A stretch of DNA of 64,000 nt from Bacillota bacterium (GTDB lineage: Bacteria; Bacillota; UBA994; UBA5500), in contig JAAYHE010000029.1 in the NCBI GenBank assembly GCA_012735505.1, positions 1,988 to 65,987 of the forward strand. Reading direction: 5' to 3'. The translations under genes and the position numbers were made by a program. Position 1 is the first letter of the stretch; every line of letters starts with the position of its first letter. Positions 8,321-60,187 of the stretch are shown one piece after another. The notes below the pieces were generated by a model, which searched no databases, was not told where the DNA came from, and saw only the letters and a list, made by a program, of their open reading frames with translations.

Positions 8321-8374
8321 TAGTAGGAGGCGTTTACTTTTCCTGTTGCCGGCGAAGCTTATAGTGTATACTGG

Positions 8375-8535
8375 ACATGGAGCAAGGTGCCCCTTTGTGG
8401 GAGAATAGGGAATCAGGTGAGAAACCTGAGCGGTCCCGCCACTATAACTACCCTGCTATTAGGGGTAGAAGCCAGGAGACCTGCCTTGCGCTTATGGCAC
8501 CGGCCTTCGGAGCAAAGGTCAGGGCATATTTGTCC
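8375..8535 (+). promoter_or_regulatory. cobalamin (B12) riboswitch
   Basis: The conserved core GGGAAtcaGGTGagAAaCCtgaGCgGtCCCGCCACTaTaa lies at 8408-8448 and the B12 box GCCAGGAGACCTGCC at 8471-8485. A possible -10 TATACT lies at 8367-8372. Confidence 0.75.
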
Positions 8536-8565: not shown

Positions 8566-8585
8566 AATTGGGAGGAGGGGTGGTT

Positions 8586-9638
8586 GTGCACGAACGACGG
8601 CAAAGTCACCGCTGGCTGACGATTTTATTGTTATTAGCACTTCTTTTATTGGTAGTATTGGTTTTAGCAGTGGCCATCGGCCGCGTCAGTATTCCAGCAG
8701 GAGAAGTTGTGGATATTATCCTCAGCCGCGTACGCGCGTTAATTACTTTTCAACCAGCCCCTATGAACACCTCCAACGAAATCATTGTTTGGAACTTACG
8801 CTTACCCCGAGCGCTATTAGCTGCAGCTGTGGGAGCTTGCCTTGCCTTAGCTGGAGGAATGATGCAAGGTCTCTTGCGTAACCCGATGGCCGATCCTTAC
8901 GTGCTCGGTGTTTCTGCCGGCGCCTCTGTCGGAGGGGCTCTGGCATTTATTATCACAGGGACGTGGGGTTGGCGTTTTGGTGTTGCGTTAACACCGATCC
9001 TAGCCTTCTTCGGAGCCATTGCTGCCGTCCTGATGGTCTATTCGTTAGCCAGAGTGGGGGGGCGTGTACCTATCATGAACTTGCTGCTGGCAGGCATCGC
9101 TCTCAATACAGTCTTGTCAGCAGTGCTTTCCCTACTGATTTATTTTACTAACAAAGAATTACAGGCCCTCATTTACTGGTTGATGGGCAGTTTTACGGGC
9201 CGCGGTTGGACACAAGTGGCGATTATTATTCCCCATTTGTTGCTAGGATTAGCGTTCTCAGTCTACCTAGCCAGAGACCTTAACGCACTTAGCATGGGTG
9301 AAGACGCAGCTGCGACCCTAGGGGTCGACGTGGAAAAAACTAAACACCTGTTGCTTCTTGCCTCAACTGCGCTGACAGCGGGAGCAGTATCTGTGAGTGG
9401 CATTATAGGTTTTGTTGGTTTATTAGTGCCTCACATTAGTCGTTTGTTGTTCGGACCAGACCACCGTCTGCTTTTGCCGGCGTCAGCTCTGTTGGGTGGG
9501 ATTTTCTTAGTTGGCGCTGACTTATTAGCACGTACCTTAATCACTACTGGCGAGTTACCTGTGGGTATTATCACCTCTCTTTGCGGAGGGCCCTTTTTCC
9601 TTTATCTGTTGCGACGTAACGAAGCGCGCCGTTCCTAG
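8586..9638 (+). CDS. FecCD/BtuC-family ABC transporter permease (iron-siderophore or cobalamin type)
   Basis: It is a 10-TM FecCD-family protein (VLGVSAGASVGGALAFII, LLAGIALNTVLSA). A GTG start at 8586 is preferred for spacing to the GGAGG RBS. The ORF track starts at TTG 8568. Confidence 0.8.
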   Translation: MHERRQSHRWLTILLLLALLLLVVLVLAVAIGRVSIPAGEVVDIILSRVRALITFQPAPMNTSNEIIVWNLRLPRALLAAAVGACLALAGGMMQGLLRNPMADPYVLGVSAGASVGGALAFIITGTWGWRFGVALTPILAFFGAIAAVLMVYSLARVGGRVPIMNLLLAGIALNTVLSAVLSLLIYFTNKELQALIYWLMGSFTGRGWTQVAIIIPHLLLGLAFSVYLARDLNALSMGEDAAATLGVDVEKTKHLLLLASTALTAGAVSVSGIIGFVGLLVPHISRLLFGPDHRLLLPASALLGGIFLVGADLLARTLITTGELPVGIITSLCGGPFFLYLLRRNEARRS

Positions 9639-9650
9639 GAGGTTTTGTTT

Positions 9651-10454
9651 GTGCTGGTAGCTACAGATTTGAAGCTAGCCTATGGCCATAAACTGGTCAT
9701 CGACCAGGTTACTTTTGCAGTTCCGCAAGGGCAATTTGCGGTTATTTTAGGTCCTAACGGATCGGGCAAATCAACTTTGCTTCGCTCCCTCTGCCGCTTG
9801 CACCAACCGCAAACAGGCACCATCAGTTTGGCGGGTCGTGATTTGCGCCATTATTCTCAGCAGGAACTAGCGCGTAATGTTGCTTTCGTGCAGCAGACTA
9901 AATCTGTTGCTTTCGACTTTACGGTAGAAGAAATAGTTCTATTAGGACGTCTACCCCACCTGCGCCGTTTTCAGACAGAAACCCAACATGATTATGCCGT
10001 GGTGGAACATTTCTTGCGGTTAACAGGTTTATGGGAGCTGCGACAGCGTCGCTTACATTCTTTAAGCGGGGGAGAACGGCAGAGGGTCTTTCTGTGCCAA
10101 GCTCTGGTGCAAGAGCCAAAACTGCTACTACTAGATGAACCGACTAACCATTTAGATATCAACCACCAACTAGAGATCCTTGATCTGGTGTCAGCTCTCA
10201 ACCAGGACCAGGGCTTGACCGTAATCGCAGTTTTGCATGACCTGAATTTGGCGGCTCTTTATGCCCAACGTCTACTAGTATTAAGCGCAGGCCGTCTAGT
10301 TGCCGACGGCCCGCCGCAGCAAGTGTTGCAAGCAGATTTACTACGGCACACCTACGGCTGTGGAGTCGCGGTCCTAACGCATCCAGTTACAGAGCAACCC
10401 CAGGTCCTGCTGGTCCCTAAGAGGAAGGCAAGACCCCTAGATCTTGGCCACTAG
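9651..10454 (+). CDS. ABC transporter ATP-binding protein (FepC/BtuD-like)
   Basis: Walker A GPNGSGKST, signature LSGGERQRV and Walker B LLLLDEP. The GTG start at 9651 is 8 nt after a TAGGAGG RBS. The ORF-track TTG at 9645 is too close to the RBS. Confidence 0.8.
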   Translation: MLVATDLKLAYGHKLVIDQVTFAVPQGQFAVILGPNGSGKSTLLRSLCRLHQPQTGTISLAGRDLRHYSQQELARNVAFVQQTKSVAFDFTVEEIVLLGRLPHLRRFQTETQHDYAVVEHFLRLTGLWELRQRRLHSLSGGERQRVFLCQALVQEPKLLLLDEPTNHLDINHQLEILDLVSALNQDQGLTVIAVLHDLNLAALYAQRLLVLSAGRLVADGPPQQVLQADLLRHTYGCGVAVLTHPVTEQPQVLLVPKRKARPLDLGH

Positions 10455-14482: not shown

Positions 14483-14537
14483 AGTCAGCCTCCTTTCCTT
14501 GCACTACACTGTACATAGTATTTCCCTGGCGAGAGGC

Positions 14538-18146: not shown

Positions 18147-20177
18147 CTATGCGTGCGCCACCCGTGCCTTTAGTTCGGCCAGCTTGCCGGGGTTAAAACG
18201 ATCGACCGTTGATAGATAGCCGGTGATGCGGCGGATACGGCGAATGGCCTCAGATTTGCAGCTAGGACATTCCGCTGGGAAAACGCCGGTATAACCACAA
18301 GCTAAACACTCGTCGACGGGGAAGTTGATTGCTCCATAGCCGAATCCAGCAGCAGCCATAGCGCGGACGATAGCATCAGTTGCTTGCCAGTTAGGGCCGG
18401 GCGGAGCATCTAGCTCAACATAAGAGATGTGTCCGGCGTTGCATAGTTCGTGGAAAGGAGCTTCAACTTTGATCTTCTCTGCAATTCCTATGGAATGGTA
18501 GACAGGAACATGATAGGAGTTGGTGTAAAAATCGCGGTCGGTCACCCCCGGGATAGCCCCAAAACGCTCCCGGTCGGGAATGACCATTTTCCCAGAAAGC
18601 CCTTCTCCGGGAGTTGCTAATAGGGTAAAGTTTAACTTATGCGCCTCTGTAGCTTCATCACAGCGGCGCCGCATGTGGCTGATGATTTTATACCCTAAGG
18701 CATGGGCCTCCTTACTTTGTCCGTGATGTTGCCCGCAAAGTGCCATTAAAGCTTCAGCTAAACCAATAAACCCGATGCTGAGAGTACCATGTTTTATTGC
18801 AGGTTCAATACGGTCAGAGGATTGCAGTTGGTCACTATCTAAGTATACGTGTTGGCCCATTAAGAACGGCATATCCTTAGCCTTAAGGTTGGCCTGAATG
18901 CGGTAACGGTGTAAAAGCTGTTCAATTACTAGCTCTATCATTTCATCTAGAAGGGCAAAAAAACGGTCTATATTGCCCTCGGCTCTGATCGCCAGGCGAG
19001 GTAAATTGATGCTAGTGAAAGATAAATTGCCTCGTCCAGACGTTTGCGCGGGGCCGTTAATATTGCTAACTACGCGGGTGCGACAGCCCATGTAAGCTAC
19101 TTCGTCGGGGTTTTGATTAAAGGGCGAATCTAAGAAAGAAAAAGAAGGGTTTAGGCGCACGGAAGCGACTTCTAGGGCTAGTAAATAAAGATCGTAATTA
19201 GGATCCCCGGGCCTAAAATTGATACCCTCTTTCACCTTAAAAATGATATTAGGAAAAATAGGATGTTCGCCCCGCCCTAGGCCAGCCTTATAAGCAAGCA
19301 AAAGCTGCTTCGTTACCTTCCTCGCTCCTGCGCTGGTACCAGTGCCGACGTTAAGACTGCTAAAAGGTACTTGCGCCCCTGCCCGAGAATGTAAAGTGTT
19401 GAGATTAAATATGAGAGATTCCATCGCTTGGTAGACATCGTCATCGGATGCCTGTTCTGCGAAAGGGCCAATGTCTTTATCGAAGTTGGGAAAAGATTGG
19501 CCACCATGCATGTCATTCTGTAAGCCCTGCAAAATTATGGCCGCCAAGGCTGCCGCCGAACCAATACGCTTTGGCGGACGGATGTATCCGTGTCCAGGAT
19601 TGAACCCCTGGGATAACAAGCGATAGAGGTCGGTTTGCACGCAGGTGAGTGTCATGCCATACCAGGCAAAATCGTGGATATGAATGTCTTTCTGCTGATG
19701 GGCTGTTGCCATATGAGTTGGCAGACCGCGTCTTTCCCATAAGTAGGCACTAGCGGCTTCGAAGATTTGCAGACCCTTGGCAGATGGCGAATTGCCAACG
19801 TTGGCATTTTCTTTATGGGTCTCTTTCATAATCTGCTGCATGGTGTCTAATAGTGCATGTTTGCCTTCGCGATAGGCTGTCCTTTGATTACGGTATGTAA
19901 TATACGCCCGCGCTGTCCGCAGATAGCCAGTTTGCATGAGCACTCGTTCGGCAGCATCTTGTACTTCTTCTACTGTTGGAAAGGGTCCGGTGGTGAGCCG
20001 ACTCAGTTCCTCCAAAACCAACGGGCAGAGTTTGACCGCGGTGGCGGTGTCGCCTTCTTGGGTGGCGGCTAAAGCCTTACTTAAGGCAGCAATTATTTTC
20101 TCGGGTGCGAAATCCACCTGCCGCCCATCACGTTTTACAATGGTTTTAAAAGATATTTTCTTTTCTTTTATGGGCAT
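18147..20177 (-). CDS. nrdD: anaerobic ribonucleoside-triphosphate reductase (class III RNR) NrdD
   Basis: It has an N-terminal ATP-cone (VKRDGRQVDF). The C-terminus carries CLACGYTGVFPAECPSCKS and the glycyl-radical motif RRITGY. Start chosen at Met6 (ATG 20175-20177), which has a GGGAG RBS. The ORF track begins at 20192. Confidence 0.85.
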   Translation of the reverse strand: MPIKEKKISFKTIVKRDGRQVDFAPEKIIAALSKALAATQEGDTATAVKLCPLVLEELSRLTTGPFPTVEEVQDAAERVLMQTGYLRTARAYITYRNQRTAYREGKHALLDTMQQIMKETHKENANVGNSPSAKGLQIFEAASAYLWERRGLPTHMATAHQQKDIHIHDFAWYGMTLTCVQTDLYRLLSQGFNPGHGYIRPPKRIGSAAALAAIILQGLQNDMHGGQSFPNFDKDIGPFAEQASDDDVYQAMESLIFNLNTLHSRAGAQVPFSSLNVGTGTSAGARKVTKQLLLAYKAGLGRGEHPIFPNIIFKVKEGINFRPGDPNYDLYLLALEVASVRLNPSFSFLDSPFNQNPDEVAYMGCRTRVVSNINGPAQTSGRGNLSFTSINLPRLAIRAEGNIDRFFALLDEMIELVIEQLLHRYRIQANLKAKDMPFLMGQHVYLDSDQLQSSDRIEPAIKHGTLSIGFIGLAEALMALCGQHHGQSKEAHALGYKIISHMRRRCDEATEAHKLNFTLLATPGEGLSGKMVIPDRERFGAIPGVTDRDFYTNSYHVPVYHSIGIAEKIKVEAPFHELCNAGHISYVELDAPPGPNWQATDAIVRAMAAAGFGYGAINFPVDECLACGYTGVFPAECPSCKSEAIRRIRRITGYLSTVDRFNPGKLAELKARVAHA

Positions 20178-20193
20178 ACCATCCACTCCCATG

Positions 20194-20241
20194 CTACAAT
20201 ATCTAGTGTATGTTACATTTTTTTAGTACGATAATTAGTGT
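20194..20241. promoter_or_regulatory. tandem NrdR boxes (cTACAATATcTAGTGT and gtACGATAATTAGTGT) 32 bp apart in the nrdD/nrdG divergent region
   Basis: Both match the 16-bp NrdR-box consensus acaCwAtATaTwGtgt at 12-13 of 16 positions. The 32-bp phasing is typical, and nrdR is encoded in this window. Confidence 0.5.
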
Positions 20242-20283
20242 ATCAATCGGAGCGGATTCTTACAAGCCTTTGAGGTGATTAAT

Positions 20284-20757
20284 ATGCAAGTACGATTAGC
20301 TGGTATAAAACCTGAGAGCGTGACCGATGGAGTTGGTGTAAGAGCTGTTATTTATTTTCAGGGTTGCCCGCATGACTGCTTGGGTTGTCACAATCCTGAG
20401 AGCCACGATCCTAGCGCTGGCTATGCGGCAGATACCGCGGAAATATTGCCTGTCGTGCTCGGTAACCCTCTGGTCGAAGGAATTACCTTATCAGGTGGCG
20501 AACCTTTTGAGCAACCTCTCGCTGCCTTGGCTTTGGCGCGGGGAGCGAAGGAACGCGGAAAATCGGTTTGGGTGTATACGGGCTATAGGCTAGAGGAGAT
20601 CTTGCAACGCCCAGCCTGTAGACGGGTGCTTCGTTACATAGACGTGTTAGTGGATGGGCCCTTTGTCTTAGCAGAGAGAGATCTAGCTTTGCCCTATCGA
20701 GGTTCCCGCAATCAACGTTTACTGGCTCTAGCTGACTGGCAGGATTGGCTTAATTGA
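20284..20757 (+). CDS. nrdG: anaerobic ribonucleotide reductase activating protein NrdG (radical SAM)
   Basis: It has CPHDCLGCHNPE (a radical-SAM Cx3Cx2C variant) near the N-terminus. ATG at 20284 follows GAGGTG by 6 nt. The ORF track begins at GTG 20275. Confidence 0.8.
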   Translation: MQVRLAGIKPESVTDGVGVRAVIYFQGCPHDCLGCHNPESHDPSAGYAADTAEILPVVLGNPLVEGITLSGGEPFEQPLAALALARGAKERGKSVWVYTGYRLEEILQRPACRRVLRYIDVLVDGPFVLAERDLALPYRGSRNQRLLALADWQDWLN

Positions 20758-55454: not shown

Positions 55455-56042
55455 TTGGGTGTGTACAAGAGTCGAGCTAAAGTTTTGCTCAGCGTTGTTC
55501 TTACATATTGCTTATTTAGCCTGTTTACGGGTGTGCTAGAGGCTAAGGCAGAGCCCATACAGGCTTCAGAATTGATTAGGTTGCATGTTTTAGCCAATAG
55601 CGAATCGTTGCAGGATCAACGCATTAAGTTAGCCGTGCGTGATGAACTATTGTCCGTATTACAACCGTTGCTAGCGACAGCAGCTTCGTTAGCTGAAGCG
55701 GAGCAGTTGATAAAAGCCAATTTGAACCAGCTCAAGCAAGCTGCAGCCACGGTCGTGGCGCAGCTGGGAGCTGACTATGAAGCCGATTTTCAATTAGGGC
55801 TGTTTAACTTTCCCGATAAATATTATGGCAAGTATACTCTGCCAGCTGGTCGATACACTGCCTTAAATGTTACTCTAGGCACAGGTGAGGGGCGTAATTG
55901 GTGGTGTGTCATTTTTCCCGCCATGTGTTTCACAGCAGGGGTTTGCCAGCAGGTAGAGGTTGCCGAAGATCAAGTTTATCATCTGCGTAGCAAACTCGTG
56001 GAATGGGTAGGAAAGTTTTTGACATGGTGTTTGCGACGCTGA
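55455..56042 (+). CDS. spoIIR: stage II sporulation protein R (SpoIIR)
   Basis: Signal/TM segment, then the IRLHVLANSES...DQ motif. Conserved C-terminal WWCVIFPAMCF. Confidence 0.7.
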   Translation: MGVYKSRAKVLLSVVLTYCLFSLFTGVLEAKAEPIQASELIRLHVLANSESLQDQRIKLAVRDELLSVLQPLLATAASLAEAEQLIKANLNQLKQAAATVVAQLGADYEADFQLGLFNFPDKYYGKYTLPAGRYTALNVTLGTGEGRNWWCVIFPAMCFTAGVCQQVEVAEDQVYHLRSKLVEWVGKFLTWCLRR

Positions 56043-56109
56043 CTTCGAAGCGTGGTTATGCTTTTTGCTTCCCCGGCATATAAATGGTGAAGAACGGGGG
56101 GCGAAAGAG

Positions 56110-56367
56110 ATGCTGAAAATATCTGATTTGCGACTGCGTGAGGTCGTCAATGTGATAGATGGCCGGCGCTTAGGCTTTGTACATGATTTGGATATTGATC
56201 TAGAAGAAGGGCGAGTTAGGGGTTTTACTGTTATAGAGCAGCAGGGTCGGCTTTTTGGGATTTTGGGAGGAAATAGCGAAATATATATCGCTTGGGAGCA
56301 AGTAATTCGTATCGGGACTGATGTTATCTTAGTGGAGATAGATAGCAGATTGCCTCATGCCAATTAG
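56110..56367 (+). CDS. ymxH: YlmC/YmxH-family sporulation protein (PRC-barrel)
   Basis: LRLREVVNVIDGRRLGFVHDLDIDLEEGRV is typical of YlmC/YmxH. ATG at 56110. Confidence 0.6.
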   Translation: MLKISDLRLREVVNVIDGRRLGFVHDLDIDLEEGRVRGFTVIEQQGRLFGILGGNSEIYIAWEQVIRIGTDVILVEIDSRLPHAN

Positions 56368-56478
56368 GGGATCATACAGCGATCATACAGCGTCATAGTA
56401 AAAGGCTGTCCTTAGCAGTTTCGTAGGACAGCCAGTTTTATTTATGCAACAATTTATGCGCTTGGCTAGCCCGCAACC

Positions 56479-56500
56479 GCTATATCTAGTAGACTATAAT
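56479..56500 (+). promoter_or_regulatory. candidate NrdR box (gCTATATCTAGTaGac) abutting a TATAAT -10 upstream of nrdR
   Basis: The core ATATCTAGT is identical to nrdD box 1. TATAAT at 56495-56500 lies 31 nt before the nrdR GTG. Confidence 0.3.
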
Positions 56501-56531
56501 CAAGTAGGGACCATATTAAGGAGGGATATCC

Positions 56532-56987
56532 GTGAAGTGCCCATATTGTGCGGTGATAGATAGCCGTGTTATCGATAGTAGGCCGACCGACGAAGGCAAT
56601 GCTATACGGCGACGCCGCGAATGTACAAGCTGCGGGCGCAGATTTACTACCTATGAAAAAATCGAAGAACTTCCTTTAATAGTAATCAAGAAAGATGGCA
56701 GTCGTGAAGCATTCGACCGCAATAAAATACTTACCGGGTTGTTCAAAGCTTGCGAAAAGCGTCCTGTAACAACAGCTACACTAGAACAGGTTGTTGATGA
56801 AATAGAGTTGGCTTTGCGCAACCAGCTCAGCCCCGAAGTGAAATCTCAGACTATAGGGGAAATGGTGATGGACCATCTTGCCGAAATTGACCAAGTAGCC
56901 TATGTGCGGTTTGCCTCGGTTTACCGCCAGTTCACAGACATCATGCGCTTTAAGCAAGAACTGGACAAGCTACTGGGGGAAAAATGA
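56532..56987 (+). CDS. nrdR: transcriptional repressor NrdR (zinc ribbon plus ATP-cone)
   Basis: [42 protein letters not shown] matches NrdR nearly position-by-position. Confidence 0.85.
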
Positions 56988-58810
56988 TGATTGAATGGGT
57001 AAAAAAGCGCGACGGTCGCATCGTGCCCTTTAGGGCGGAAAAGATTGCTGACGCTATTTTTGCGGCGGCACAAGCAGTGGGCGGAGAAGACCGGCGGCAA
57101 GCAGAATTCCTAGCTGGACAGGTTATTCATCTATTGCAGCAAAGCACTTTATCCCGGGAAGTGCCACAAGTTGAGGAAATCCAAGATTTGGTAGAAAAAG
57201 TACTTATCGAGCATGGACACGCACGTACTGCCAAGGCATTTATTCTTTATCGCAATCAGCGTACTCGTATTCGTGAAGCTAAAAGCGAATTGATGGACGT
57301 CGTCAGTGAAATCTTCCAAGAGTCTGGGAGCGAGGCCCAGTCTGCTTCTCTGCCGCTAGATAAGCTACAGCGGATCGCGAGTGCTGCCAGTGAACGCTAC
57401 AGCCTAAATAACCTTTTACCGCGGGAGTATGCCTTAGCTCACCAACGAGCAAGGATTCATATTGATCGTTTAGCACATTACAGTACAGCCGTCACGGCTG
57501 TTAGCTTAGATATGAAGAGACCTTTAGCTGCCGGTCAGACGGTGGGGCGTGTGCCTATTCCGCCCTTGCGTGATCTAGACGACTTAGCATATTTCAGCGC
57601 AGCTTTGGTACTGGCGGCTCAAAACGAAGCCCTCGAAGAGGTTATGTTAGCGAATGTCGACGCTGTTTTCGTTAACTTATGTGAGCGGTGGCAGCAGCAA
57701 CCGAGCCAGAGTGAAGTACAGCGATTAGCGGCTAGTTTCTTAACGGCCATTAACCTGGCCCTAGCGACTGGAGCAGGGTTACCAGCAAAGATTTGCGTCA
57801 GTGTCGGTACAGCTATTTCGCCTATCGGACAATTGTTTACCAATTCCTTACTGGCGGCCTTGCAAGAGGGGCAACACTTTCATACTGATTTGTTCTTGCC
57901 CCAGATCGTCTTTCAGTTACTGGAAGGAGTTAACGCTTCTCCTGGCGACCCGGGCTATGAGCTGGCGCAGTCAGCTAAGCAAGTTGCCCAGCAATATGGA
58001 AATCTGTCTTTCGTTTACCTAGCCAACGGTGAGCCTAGCTCTCACTTCTTAGCCAGCGGTTGCCGGCTAGAGGCAGATTTCCCAGTTTTGATTGGTAGAA
58101 CTTTTATTAACATGCCGCGCTTAGTCTTGGAGGCAGACACTGCCACAGGCTTCTATGCTAATGTGGATGCTATCTTTAGTTTAGTGGCTCGCCAGATGGC
58201 CCATCGCTACGAAGTGCTTACTGCTTTAAAACCGACAGATTTGCCTTTACTAGGGCAACAGCTAGGATGGACGGACGACACCAACGAGTCACTATTGAAA
58301 CAGGGGCTCTTATTGCTGGTGCCCATAGGGATTAACGATGCTTTGCGGCTGGCTCAATTGCGGTTTGGCAATGCCATGGAGTTGACCGATAAAGATTTCC
58401 TTAGATTACTACTAGAGATTTGCGAGCATTGGCGCAACTATTATTCCTTAAATTTACAGATAGGCGTTGGGCAATATGAGGGTGTTGCCCGCCGTTTCTT
58501 CAATTATGATGCTAGTCTTTTCCCCTTGGTCAACATGGTTTGGCCCGAACGCATGGCTTATAGCGATAGGTTAGGACAAGTAGCCCTTCCACCTCTACCT
58601 GGCGGCCAGTTAGAGCACTGGTTACCCACACAAGCTCTACAGGCAGGGGCGGTGTTGGTCAGCAACCACATTCAGGCCAGCTGCTCTAGCTGTGGGGAGG
58701 TTCTGGCACCGGGAGAATCTAGTTGTCCAGCCTGTAAAGGTGAAGGTGAAATAAGGATCGTGCAGCGGGGCGGGTACCTAAAACCCCAAGCGCCTGGCTT
58801 GCCGTCTTGA
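56984..58810 (+). CDS. divergent class III ribonucleotide reductase-like glycyl-radical protein (second NrdD paralog), overlapping nrdR by 4 nt
   Basis: The ATP-cone is highly similar to nrdD ([18 protein letters not shown] vs ARAYITYRNQRTAYREGK). The C-terminus has [20 protein letters not shown] followed by RIVQRGGY, matching the NrdD Zn-ribbon plus RxxGY glycyl-radical pattern. The central domain is strongly diverged. Confidence 0.55.
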
Positions 58811-58897
58811 TGTGCGGGGAAGGTTAAATATGGTGATGCAGGATTTTTGTTGCGGATAGAGAATACTGGAACAAGCGGGTAGCGGGGGTGATCAGAT

Positions 58898-60187
58898 ATG
58901 GCGAGAAAGAAACGTAAGCGAAGAAGATTCAGACCCCGCAAGTTAATAAGGCGTTTATTAGTGCTCGGGATTCTGTTTAGCTTTTTCGCTGGGGTATTCT
59001 GGTTAGGTAGGGGTACCTATCGCCTGATACGAGGCTGGCTTAATCGGCCCCACCTGCTCAAGACCGTTGTAGCGCAGGAGATACAAGGTGGCGATGGCAT
59101 CAGAGCTGAAGCCATTTTGTTACGGCAAGAGGTTGTCGTTTTGGCTGATAAGCCGGGCAAAGCCAATCTTTTGCTAGGGGATGGCGAGCAAGTGGAGCAG
59201 GGCCGTTTGGCCTTAGAGGTAGTCGATAAGGCCCTTTTAGCCAGTATCGACGCGGAACTACAGAAGATTGAGCAAGGTAGTTCGTCAAATTCAGGTGCTA
59301 ACAGCCAAGAGCTGGCGAATGTGGAAACGAAGTTGATAGAGAGTCGTAATCAACTCTATTCTGCCGGGGCCGTCTATCGCGAGGCCTTGCGCACCCAGGC
59401 GGTAGCCAGCTATAACAACCTTTATAATACTTTTGCCAAGTCGGCGCGGTCGGTAGTACAACTACAGCAAGATTATCTGCGTTTAGTGCAGAGCCAAGGG
59501 GCAGCCGCCGAACGCAGGCAGGAGCTGACTGAACGGCGGCAAGCCGCTATTGTTCCAGTGCGGGCTCCTGTTGCAGGCACCATTTTTTATTGGGTAGATG
59601 GTTTAGAGCAACAGGCAGTTGTTAACAATTTGAAGCCTCAGCTTTGGGATCAGTTACAGGCGGCAAAGAACAATAAGTGCTACCAGACTAGCCCTGACAG
59701 TCAAATAGAAGCAGGTCAACCTGTTTTTAAAATAGCGGTAGGCAAGGAGGCCTATTTGCTATTGCAACTGGCAGGTGACGTTGCGGAACTCCCAGCCGAT
59801 TGGGACTCTCTCAGCGTACATGTTCTGGGGGAAGCTGGCACGACATTTTCAGCTTCTGTCGTTAGCAGATCTGAGTTAGGGCCAGGCCAAGTTTTGTTGC
59901 AGACAAGCCTGCCCGAAACCTTGTCTTTATCCCGGTTTTTTGAGGTCGACCTACATAAGGAAGGGACTGTTTTTTGCCGTATACCAGCGCAAGCGATTAT
60001 CTCCATTGAAGACGAGACGGTTGTTTTTGTCTTAGACGGCAATACTGTAAAGGCACACGCTATCGAGGTCTTGCGTCCAGACAAAAAATATATGATTGTC
60101 ACTGGGATTGAACCAGGCGTTAACCTTATAGTGAATCCAGATGGGCTGGTGGATGGCCAAGACGTGACAGACAGACTAAGGAAGTGA
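58898..60187 (+). CDS. HlyD-family membrane-fusion-like protein (N-terminal TM, coiled coil, beta-barrel)
   Basis: Basic N-terminus plus TM anchor, long coiled coil, and VRAPVAGTIFYW lipoyl-like hairpin. Confidence 0.4.
   Translation: MARKKRKRRRFRPRKLIRRLLVLGILFSFFAGVFWLGRGTYRLIRGWLNRPHLLKTVVAQEIQGGDGIRAEAILLRQEVVVLADKPGKANLLLGDGEQVEQGRLALEVVDKALLASIDAELQKIEQGSSSNSGANSQELANVETKLIESRNQLYSAGAVYREALRTQAVASYNNLYNTFAKSARSVVQLQQDYLRLVQSQGAAAERRQELTERRQAAIVPVRAPVAGTIFYWVDGLEQQAVVNNLKPQLWDQLQAAKNNKCYQTSPDSQIEAGQPVFKIAVGKEAYLLLQLAGDVAELPADWDSLSVHVLGEAGTTFSASVVSRSELGPGQVLLQTSLPETLSLSRFFEVDLHKEGTVFCRIPAQAIISIEDETVVFVLDGNTVKAHAIEVLRPDKKYMIVTGIEPGVNLIVNPDGLVDGQDVTDRLRK

Follow-up and report, generated by a model that had tools for sequence, protein, structure and literature searches.

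A probably inactive NrdD paralog with a highly conserved ATP-cone, encoded directly behind nrdR in uncultured Bacillota

The window analyzed here, a 64,000-nucleotide stretch of contig JAAYHE010000029.1 from a Bacillota bacterium, contains, directly downstream of the repressor gene nrdR, a second and strongly diverged gene of the NrdD type, that is, of class III ribonucleotide reductase (RNR). An original prediction, made from the nucleotide sequence, had placed at this site an open reading frame (ORF) overlapping the nrdR stop codon as ATGA, and the ORF, of 608 amino acids (aa), is present as claimed. Our analysis indicates that its product, denoted the paralog or pseudo-NrdD, is probably a catalytically inactive descendant of NrdD that has been kept by selection and serves as a nucleotide-sensing regulatory partner rather than as an enzyme. 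It belongs to a clade of similar proteins, described below. The features of the locus are the following:

56404..56443, forward strand: intrinsic terminator after ylmC, read from the sequence as a stem (GGCTGTCCT/AGGACAGCC) followed by a T-run
56477..56500, forward strand: NrdR-box-like block (CCGCTATATCTAGTAG) overlapping a TATAAT −10 hexamer (56495-56500), conserved in clade loci
56532..56987, forward strand: nrdR, encoding a repressor of 151 aa with Zn-ribbon and ATP-cone
56984..58810, forward strand: degenerate NrdD paralog (pseudo-NrdD) of 608 aa, with the ATG at 56987 as the probable homologous start
56984..57283, forward strand: ATP-cone of the paralog (aa 1-100; Pfam ATP-cone, 82.6 bits), under stronger constraint than the rest of the protein
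57458..57469, forward strand: H-I-D-R (aa 159-162), where canonical NrdDs have the substrate-triphosphate motif H-x-H-D, from the residue tabulation (motif defined in PMC4493059)
57497..57499, forward strand: Ala172, which replaces the bottom-face catalytic Cys (Pc C171, Ec C175, T4 C79), from BLASTP and the tabulation
58046..58066, forward strand: shortened finger-loop remnant L-A-S-G-C-R-L (aa 355-361) with Cys360, from the alignments
58682..58735, forward strand: Zn-ribbon remnant Cx2C-x10-Cx2C (aa 567-584) with C567, C570, C581 and C584, read from the sequence
58772..58780, forward strand: Gly-Tyr-Leu loop region (Gly in 21, Tyr in 20 and Leu in 20 of 21 clade members)

The upstream gene is a clear orthologue of nrdR (TIGR00244, 216 bits, cutoff 124.65; Pfam families Zn_ribbon_NrdR and ATP-cone). 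Within the paralog ORF, a second ATG at 56987 matches the MI[EK]W start of all relatives (MIEW... in the window) and shares 1 nucleotide (nt) with the nrdR stop codon. The nrdR stop and the paralog start overlap by 4 or 8 nt in nine of nine clade loci; in canonical nrdR-nrdD loci, the two genes are separated by a median of +24 nt, with overlaps in about 5 of 61. This arrangement points to a translational coupling of the paralog to nrdR that is conserved in the clade. A promoter and terminator scanner applied to 56000-59000 revealed no internal promoter between the two genes, its matches being at chance level.

Alignment by BLASTP with the canonical NrdD of the window (18147..20192) extends over the full length of the paralog and yields 30% identity (E 1e-53). 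The paralog is 73 aa shorter, consistent with the ∼70 aa given in the original prediction, and the canonical segment LTCVQTDL pairs with VTAVSLDM as had been noted there; deletions relative to NrdD amount to about 8, 17 and 16 aa. In addition to the ATP-cone, Pfam recognizes the NRDD family (118 bits; cutoff 26.2), covering profile positions 12-432 of 562. The paralog lies below the cutoffs of the NCBIfam equivalog models for NrdD (PRK07111, 220.6 bits versus 764; TIGR02487, 87.6 bits versus 326), and the canonical NrdD of the window scores 966 bits on PRK07111. An AlphaFold2 (AF2) model of the paralog (predicted local distance difference test, pLDDT, 88.8; predicted template-modelling score, pTM, 0.85) displays an NrdD-type barrel, and only the former flap (aa 115-119) and the tail are of low confidence. 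The best Foldseek matches of this model are StNrdD, PcNrdD, T4 NrdD and T. maritima NrdD, with template-modelling (TM) scores ≤0.72 and E values down to 2e-27. In sequence and structure, the paralog is clearly homologous to NrdD, and it has the 10-stranded α/β barrel of the RNR and glycyl-radical enzyme (GRE) type. It has the N-terminal ATP-cone ligands, the linker helix and this barrel in common with the formate-type NrdDs (PcNrdD, 8P23; StNrdD, 9D3X; T4 NrdD, 1H7A); with class III NrdDs it shares the ancestral nrdD slot after nrdR and, in the window copy, the C-terminal Zn-ribbon and Gly-Tyr loop.

A search of 5.8 billion proteins delimited the clade as 22 clusters at 90% identity (P0001-P0022), which are 45-100% identical, 557-611 aa long and derived throughout from uncultured Bacillota/Firmicutes. 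In this search the score steps from 456 bits for the clade to 297 bits for ordinary NrdDs of ∼674 aa. In a library of 1.84 billion representatives, the clade amounts to three representatives at 50% identity. Residues were tabulated for 21 clade members and 31 canonical NrdDs in the register of a MAFFT alignment. The defining residues were taken from PMC4493059, PMC11226230 and PMC12662201, and the numbering was anchored by aligning the canonical NrdD of the window to PcNrdD (Pc), StNrdD (St) and T4 NrdD. One locus, L005 (UBA5500 contig DIPA01000046.1), was left out of the analyses because sigE, sigG and the paralog all contain frame breaks on this contig; these are probably assembly errors and not biology.

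Throughout the clade, residues of the NrdD active site are replaced or deleted. Both asparagines of the NxN flap (Pc N114 and N116) are present in all 31 canonical sequences; in the clade, N114 is deleted and N116 is replaced by Gln, Gly, Leu and others. The HxHD motif has become H-I-[DE]-[RQH], in that H159 is replaced by Asp (17 members) or Glu (4), and D160 by Arg (13), Gln (6) or His (2), versus His and Asp in all 31 canonical NrdDs. The bottom-face cysteine, likewise invariant in the canonical set (31/31), is Ala in 15, Gly in 5 and Ser in 1 of the clade members. The thiyl-radical cysteine (Pc C416, T4 C290) belongs to a finger-loop region that is 8 aa shorter in the clade than in canonical NrdDs, and its counterpart is Ser358 in the MAFFT register and Cys360 in the BLAST register. 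In the former, the position is Ser in 18 and Gly in 3 members, versus Cys in 31/31 canonical enzymes; in the latter, it is Cys in the window copy only, the other 20 members having Thr, Val, Ala, Leu or Met at position 360 together with Ser or Gly at position 358. Met414 of the finger loop, the thiosulfuranyl partner at −2, is replaced by Leu (13) or Phe (8), versus Met in all 31 canonical enzymes, and Asn435 of the formate-type enzymes (31 of 31) by Leu (15), Val (2), Met (2), Ala (1) or Thr (1). Glu581 is retained in 6 of 21 members versus 30 of 31 canonical NrdDs. The YTNS and AGH motifs, conserved in canonical NrdDs, are replaced, the ATPxE motif is also lost, and no conservation remains in loop 2, through which the specificity signal reaches the active site. 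The only cysteines conserved clade-wide are those of the Zn-ribbon; any other Cys occurs in at most 13 of 21 members.

Altogether, the clade has lost 138 of the 278 near-invariant columns of canonical NrdDs. None of the 36 columns in the cone is affected; the N-terminal linker has lost 17 of its 41, the core 102 of its 173 and the glycyl-radical domain (GRD) 19 of its 28. Residues described as strictly or completely conserved in RNRs (PMC4493059, PMC11226230) are among those replaced. The original prediction had considered that the gene might be a simple duplicate with all catalytic residues conserved; upon alignment with canonical NrdDs they clearly are not all conserved, and the paralog is therefore not a simple duplicate. 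Its clade differs from class III NrdD in lacking the thiyl and bottom-face cysteines, the finger-loop Met, NxN, HxHD, Asn435, a conserved loop 2, ATPxE and YTNS, as well as in having no adjacent nrdG and a cone that is more conserved than the core. The specificity-site Gln (T4 Q114, St Q225) was also tried as a test position and dropped; Ile is found there in the canonical NrdD of the window and in PcNrdD as well.

The C-terminal region is retained to a variable extent. The four Zn cysteines are kept in 19, 19, 19 and 15 of the 21 members; P0013 and P0014 are without them, and in L004/P0022, which lies on a 1.1-Mb contig, a premature stop before the Zn-ribbon removes the whole GRD. The original prediction correctly described a Cx2C-x10-Cx2C site followed by RIVQRGGY(L). 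The RxxGY context that it assigned to the radical Gly does not hold, since Q-R-G-G-Y has its Arg at −2 and not at −3. At −3, Arg occurs in 6 of 21 clade members, the window copy having Gln; at −2, Ile or Val has given way to Glu or Arg; and position −1 is Asp in 11 and Gly in 9 members, compared with Thr or Cys in canonical NrdDs. The AF2 model keeps a β-hairpin with the Gly at its tip. With an identity of 0.32, the C-terminus is the least conserved region of the clade, and the overall pattern indicates a GRD that is in erosion and dispensable. In the locus with the premature stop, L004:9998-11674 is followed by ∼120 nt in which the in-frame continuation (...RLRCTLTVSADRLVGFWYL...) resembles a decayed Zn/Gly remnant.

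The ATP-cone shows the opposite behaviour, its constraint pattern being inverted relative to active enzymes. Clade identity is 0.87 in the cone and 0.49 in the core (ratio 1.84), the corresponding values for canonical NrdDs being 0.64 and 0.70 (ratio 0.91); by this measure the paralog cone appears more conserved than that of any active NrdD. In PcNrdD, residues K7, R8, D9, R11, Y83, R87 and R91 bind two ATP or dATP molecules (PMC11226230). Their equivalents in the paralog, K8, R9, D10, R12, Y89, R93 and R97, are invariant in all 22 clade sequences, and the cone keeps every residue needed for the predicted binding of two nucleotides. Identity to the canonical cone of the window is 43.8% over 105 aa, lower than the ∼50% of the original prediction. 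The cone of the catalytic NrdD of the window (aa 12-112) is unusually divergent (44% identical to the paralog cone; ∼64% for typical Firmicute NrdD cones), so that it is the paralog that has kept the more standard cone.

To estimate selection, we used one pair of loci, L081 and L083 (88% aa identity; synonymous divergence, dS, ∼0.62), because deeper pairs were saturated (dS above 1.5 or undefined). The ratio of nonsynonymous to synonymous divergence (dN/dS) of this single unsaturated pair was 0.03 for cone plus linker, rising to 0.14 in the core and 0.15 in the C-terminus. Moreover, the clade has 42 near-invariant positions at which canonical NrdDs vary or carry another residue, and these new constraints imply a new function. 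The positions include Q39, G45, H49, L50 and Q53 on one face of cone helix 2, and R460, F461, W483, R484, P514 and W520 in the C-terminal half of the barrel. These values indicate purifying selection over the whole protein, strongest on the cone.

The genes around the paralog are arranged in the order ftsA-ftsZ-spoIIGA-sigE-sigG-spoIIR-ylmC(PRC)-nrdR-paralog-(ylmD)-HlyD-like-yggS-sepF-yggT-divIVA, which is kept in every clade locus. The same synteny surrounds ordinary NrdDs in related Firmicutes (Syntrophomonadaceae, Pelotomaculum, Desulfotomaculum, Desulfofundulus, Ammonifex, Moorellales and others), where nrdR lies directly upstream of nrdD in 62 of 75 loci and nrdG directly downstream in 60 of 75. 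The assumption that nrdR is not usually followed by an nrdD is thus wrong for this lineage. Because nrdR-nrdD-nrdG is the usual content of this slot, the paralog is the positional descendant of the resident nrdD, and the comparison indicates that nrdG has been deleted from its locus. We propose that the ancestor carried nrdR-nrdD-nrdG between ylmC and the ylmD/yggS-sepF-divIVA genes, an arrangement still found in most related Clostridia-type Firmicutes; the nrdR-adjacent nrdD copy would have lost nrdG and its catalytic machinery, with a catalytic nrdD-nrdG pair present elsewhere in the genome. In several clade genomes (L081:9779-10657, L084:9761-10573), a ylmD gene (Cu-oxidase_4/YfiH family) separates the paralog from the HlyD-like gene; it is not at that position in the window (58811-58897) or in L001.

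The second pair in the window comprises three features:

18147..20192, reverse strand: canonical catalytic nrdD, probable start 20177, with the full catalytic signature (NNHDCMCNENCCCCRGY); 536 bits to PcNrdD 8P23
20194..20241, no strand assigned: NrdR-box pair between the divergent nrdD and nrdG, with boxes at 20194-20209 and 20226-20241 (CTACAATATCTAGTGT and GTACGATAATTAGTGT being the two boxes)
20275..20757, forward strand: nrdG activase, the only one in the window (TIGR02491, 136 bits; cutoff 126.1)

A tblastn search of the window gave no second nrdG match, in agreement with the single activase gene that had been reported beside the canonical nrdD. The two NrdR boxes are 32 bp apart, start to start, and form the only correctly spaced pair in the 64-kb window (shuffle mean 0.1 pairs). 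The separate nrdD/nrdG pair encodes the catalytic enzyme of the lineage. In three of three genomes checked, a catalytic nrdD-nrdG pair accompanies the paralog in the same contig or assembly; the paralog and the catalytic NrdD occur together on one contig (JAKOXL010000024.1) or in one assembly (JAEZJZ01), with the nrdG<->nrdD-ykuD-SBP synteny of the window. The catalytic orthologues form a group of 75-100% identity. Between the window and JAKOXL01, the catalytic NrdDs are 84% and the paralogs 55% identical, and between the window and JAEZJZ01, 76% and 46%; the paralog evolves ∼3-fold faster than the catalytic copy. With its catalytic residues lost, its sequence still under purifying selection and an active copy of NrdD encoded elsewhere in the genome, the protein is probably a pseudoenzyme.

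Upstream of nrdR, the GC-rich hairpin and T-run after ylmC are conserved in the clade loci (alignment A4); a simple scanner missed this terminator because its loop is 12 nt long. An upstream block, CACAAYATCTAGTAGACTATAA, is conserved in six loci and resembles the nrdD-proximal box CTACAATATCTAGTGT. For membership of the NrdR regulon, the arrangement looked for was a pair of boxes that overlaps the promoter and has a spacer of 15-16 bp. According to PMC9110341, NrdR "often" regulates the gene that encodes it, and an autoregulated promoter of the nrdR-paralog operon is plausible. Further NrdR-box-like 16-mers with at most three mismatches, at 699-714 (within a UbiA-family gene) and at 14506-14521 (24 nt upstream of gerA), are unpaired and probably due to chance. 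A scan of the window with Rfam found no element near the paralog locus; its only match was a cobalamin riboswitch (RF00174, 77 bits) at 8368-8502 on the forward strand, upstream of ORFs 8568-9638 and 9645-10454 and without visible relation to RNR genes.

Degenerate NrdDs are not limited to this clade. A group B (L008, L019, L020, L026, L028, L052 and L069; also P0069 and P0093) consists of a degenerate ATP-cone plus NrdD-like protein of 612-625 aa in the same ylmC-...-yggS slot, the ORFs being located at ∼10 kb in each locus. In these proteins, the whole Zn-ribbon/glycyl-radical domain is gone, C171 is replaced by Ser and C416 by Ser, Asn or Thr. The surroundings contain no nrdG, and of these loci L019 and L069 alone have a neighbouring nrdR. 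Identity within the group is 0.77 in the cone versus 0.58 in the core. Thirteen 50%-identity representatives have matches to the clade profile that span the core; 12 of them lack the catalytic signature, and NrdD degeneration seems to recur. In a neighbour-joining tree, the paralog clade (group A) and group B were placed together in 100% of bootstraps. Identities between groups A and B equal those between group A and canonical NrdDs, so that long-branch attraction may underlie this grouping, and the degenerate NrdDs may have had one origin or several. Other partly or differently degenerate homologues are L023 and L047 (697 aa), L024 (640 aa), L006/P0044 (662 aa), P0049 (647 aa) and P0121-P0136, of which L023, L047, L024 and L006 occupy the slot described for the clade; L023 and L047 keep the finger-loop Met, the thiyl Cys, the Zn site and the Gly, and are without NxN, HxHD and the bottom-face Cys.

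What might such a protein do? We infer a regulatory role for the paralog from the pattern of conservation and the arrangement of genes. It would be a non-catalytic regulatory subunit that senses ATP and dATP and is made in fixed proportion with NrdR. The two proteins have an ATP-cone in common and share an operon with overlapping stop and start codons. Unlike NrdR, the paralog has no N-terminal DNA-binding Zn-ribbon and carries a large dead barrel domain, and the two cones are only ∼26% identical. The ATP-cones of NrdR oligomerize according to the nucleotide bound, forming tetramers and dodecamers (PMC9110341), and those of NrdD form cone dimers and tetramers (PMC11226230, PMC12662201). Since ATP-cones act by nucleotide-dependent oligomerization, we favour a cone-mediated complex with NrdR, in which the paralog cone would join nucleotide-dependent cone-cone oligomers and thereby tune repression of the catalytic nrdDG operon. 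This is the preferred mechanism, put forward tentatively and with somewhat less than an even chance of being right. The retained barrel and the Zn/Gly remnant may act as a scaffold. A decoy function towards NrdG is at most conceivable. The original prediction had offered, as one option, a repurposed glycyl-radical/ATP-cone protein that may act with NrdR: the hyper-conserved cone, the coupling to nrdR and the selection speak for a repurposed ATP-cone protein of this kind, whereas the glycyl-radical attribute is doubtful, the motif being degenerate, the Zn site lost in two members and the domain in one.

Several observations weigh against a purely regulatory partner of NrdR. The Gly-Tyr-Leu sequence and the Zn-ribbon are present in most members, and the window copy, with both of these and a possible Cys at the finger-loop tip, may have residual radical chemistry. 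The linkage to nrdR is inherited from the ancestral operon, and adjacency alone is therefore no evidence of interaction; the clade-specific part of this linkage is the tightened overlap only. A single box-like element lies upstream of nrdR, and a search with the 16-mer consensus gave no second box at 21 or 31-32 bp. Finally, the degenerate NrdDs of group B are often without an adjacent nrdR, which weakens an obligate partnership with NrdR as a general rule.

Among the other explanations, the one ranked next, although unlikely, is that the paralog is a non-catalytic, prozyme-like subunit that heterodimerizes with the catalytic NrdD through the barrel dimer interface and does not act via NrdR. 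The purifying selection on the barrel core (dN/dS 0.14) and the co-occurrence with a catalytic NrdD in every genome checked are in line with such a subunit, as are the obligate dimerization of NrdD and its regulation through the cone (PMC11226230, PMC12662201); the catalytic NrdD, however, owns a complete ATP-cone, and its gene is unlinked to that of the paralog, whereas the paralog is translationally coupled to nrdR. Another possibility, which we consider very improbable, is a GRE repurposed for some other radical reaction and activated in trans by the single NrdG. It would account for the nearly invariant Gly-Tyr-Leu, the Zn-ribbon in 19 of 21 members and the modelled hairpin with Gly at its tip, yet the known GREs all relay the radical to a conserved Cys (PMC4493059) and none is conserved in the clade. 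Its Gly context also departs from that expected (Arg at −3 in 6 of 21 only, Asp or Gly at −1), P0013 and P0014 have no Zn cysteines and L004 has no GRD, and the C-terminus is the region of 0.32 identity. Least credible of all the readings is the other option of the original prediction, a specialised or alternate class III RNR, which would have to reduce ribonucleotides by means of an altered active site. Homology and fold do extend over the full length of NrdD, and the window copy keeps the Zn-ribbon, Gly-Tyr-Leu and one Cys near the finger loop; against this, the thiyl Cys is missing in 20 of 21 members, the NxN flap, HxHD, Met414, Asn435 and loop 2 are lost, no activase gene lies beside the paralog, the GRD is lost in some members, and scores fall far below all NrdD equivalog cutoffs (220 bits versus 764 for PRK07111).

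The gene might also be a decaying pseudogene or functionless relic of nrdD. Half of the canonical invariant positions are indeed lost, and the paralog evolves ∼3-fold faster than the catalytic copy; nevertheless, the 22 clusters (45-100% identity) have intact ORFs of conserved length, every region gives a dN/dS between 0.03 and 0.15, 42 positions have become newly invariant, the fold is confidently modelled and the overlap with nrdR is conserved, and we give the relic hardly any credence. There is a very slight chance that the paralog is sporulation-specific, as the original prediction suggested from its spoIIGA-sigE-sigG neighbourhood. It does lie 1.5 kb downstream of sigG, spoIIR and ylmC, but ordinary nrdR-nrdD-nrdG loci in dozens of Firmicutes have the same sporulation-gene neighbours, which therefore reflect generic synteny at the end of the dcw/ylm cluster. 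In addition, the terminator and the separate promoter-like region 5′ of nrdR set the operon apart from the sporulation genes, and no sigE- or sigG-type evidence was found.

Inactive relatives of metabolic enzymes that are retained for other purposes have precedents. The betaherpesvirus homologues of the RNR large subunit, UL45 of human cytomegalovirus and M45 of murine cytomegalovirus, have lost catalytic residues, yet they are retained and repurposed. They differ from the paralog in their class Ia R1 origin, in belonging to eukaryotic viruses, in having no ATP-cone role and in acting on host cell-death signalling, the kinship being limited to the RNR fold. The S-adenosylmethionine decarboxylase prozyme of trypanosomatids is a dead paralogue kept by selection beside an active copy and presumed to be regulatory; its fold and pathway are unrelated.

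No account of a pseudo-NrdD was found in the searchable literature, the full text of PMC9531940 included, which is not proof that none exists. It is possible, though rather doubtful, that pseudo-NrdDs represent an undescribed class of ATP-cone signalling proteins, in which dead class III RNR barrels arise repeatedly in Firmicutes from nrdR-nrdD-nrdG and become either a stoichiometric nucleotide-sensing subunit of the NrdR system or a prozyme-like subunit of NrdD. The regulation of RNRs by ATP-cones and NrdR is an active structural field (PcNrdD in 2024, StNrdD in 2025, NrdR in 2022-2025), and in current models the cone of NrdD regulates its own active site and NrdR acts alone. Several clade proteins are publicly labelled "anaerobic ribonucleoside-triphosphate reductase", and RNR repertoires based on genomes would overcount class III enzymes in these lineages. 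A dead NrdD under selection would be a natural experiment that parts cone signalling from catalysis, and the paralog is a testable candidate partner in the homeostasis of deoxyribonucleoside triphosphates (dNTPs). If the proposal is true, pseudo-NrdDs would add to the control of the dNTP pool a protein layer that is missing from current NrdR models.

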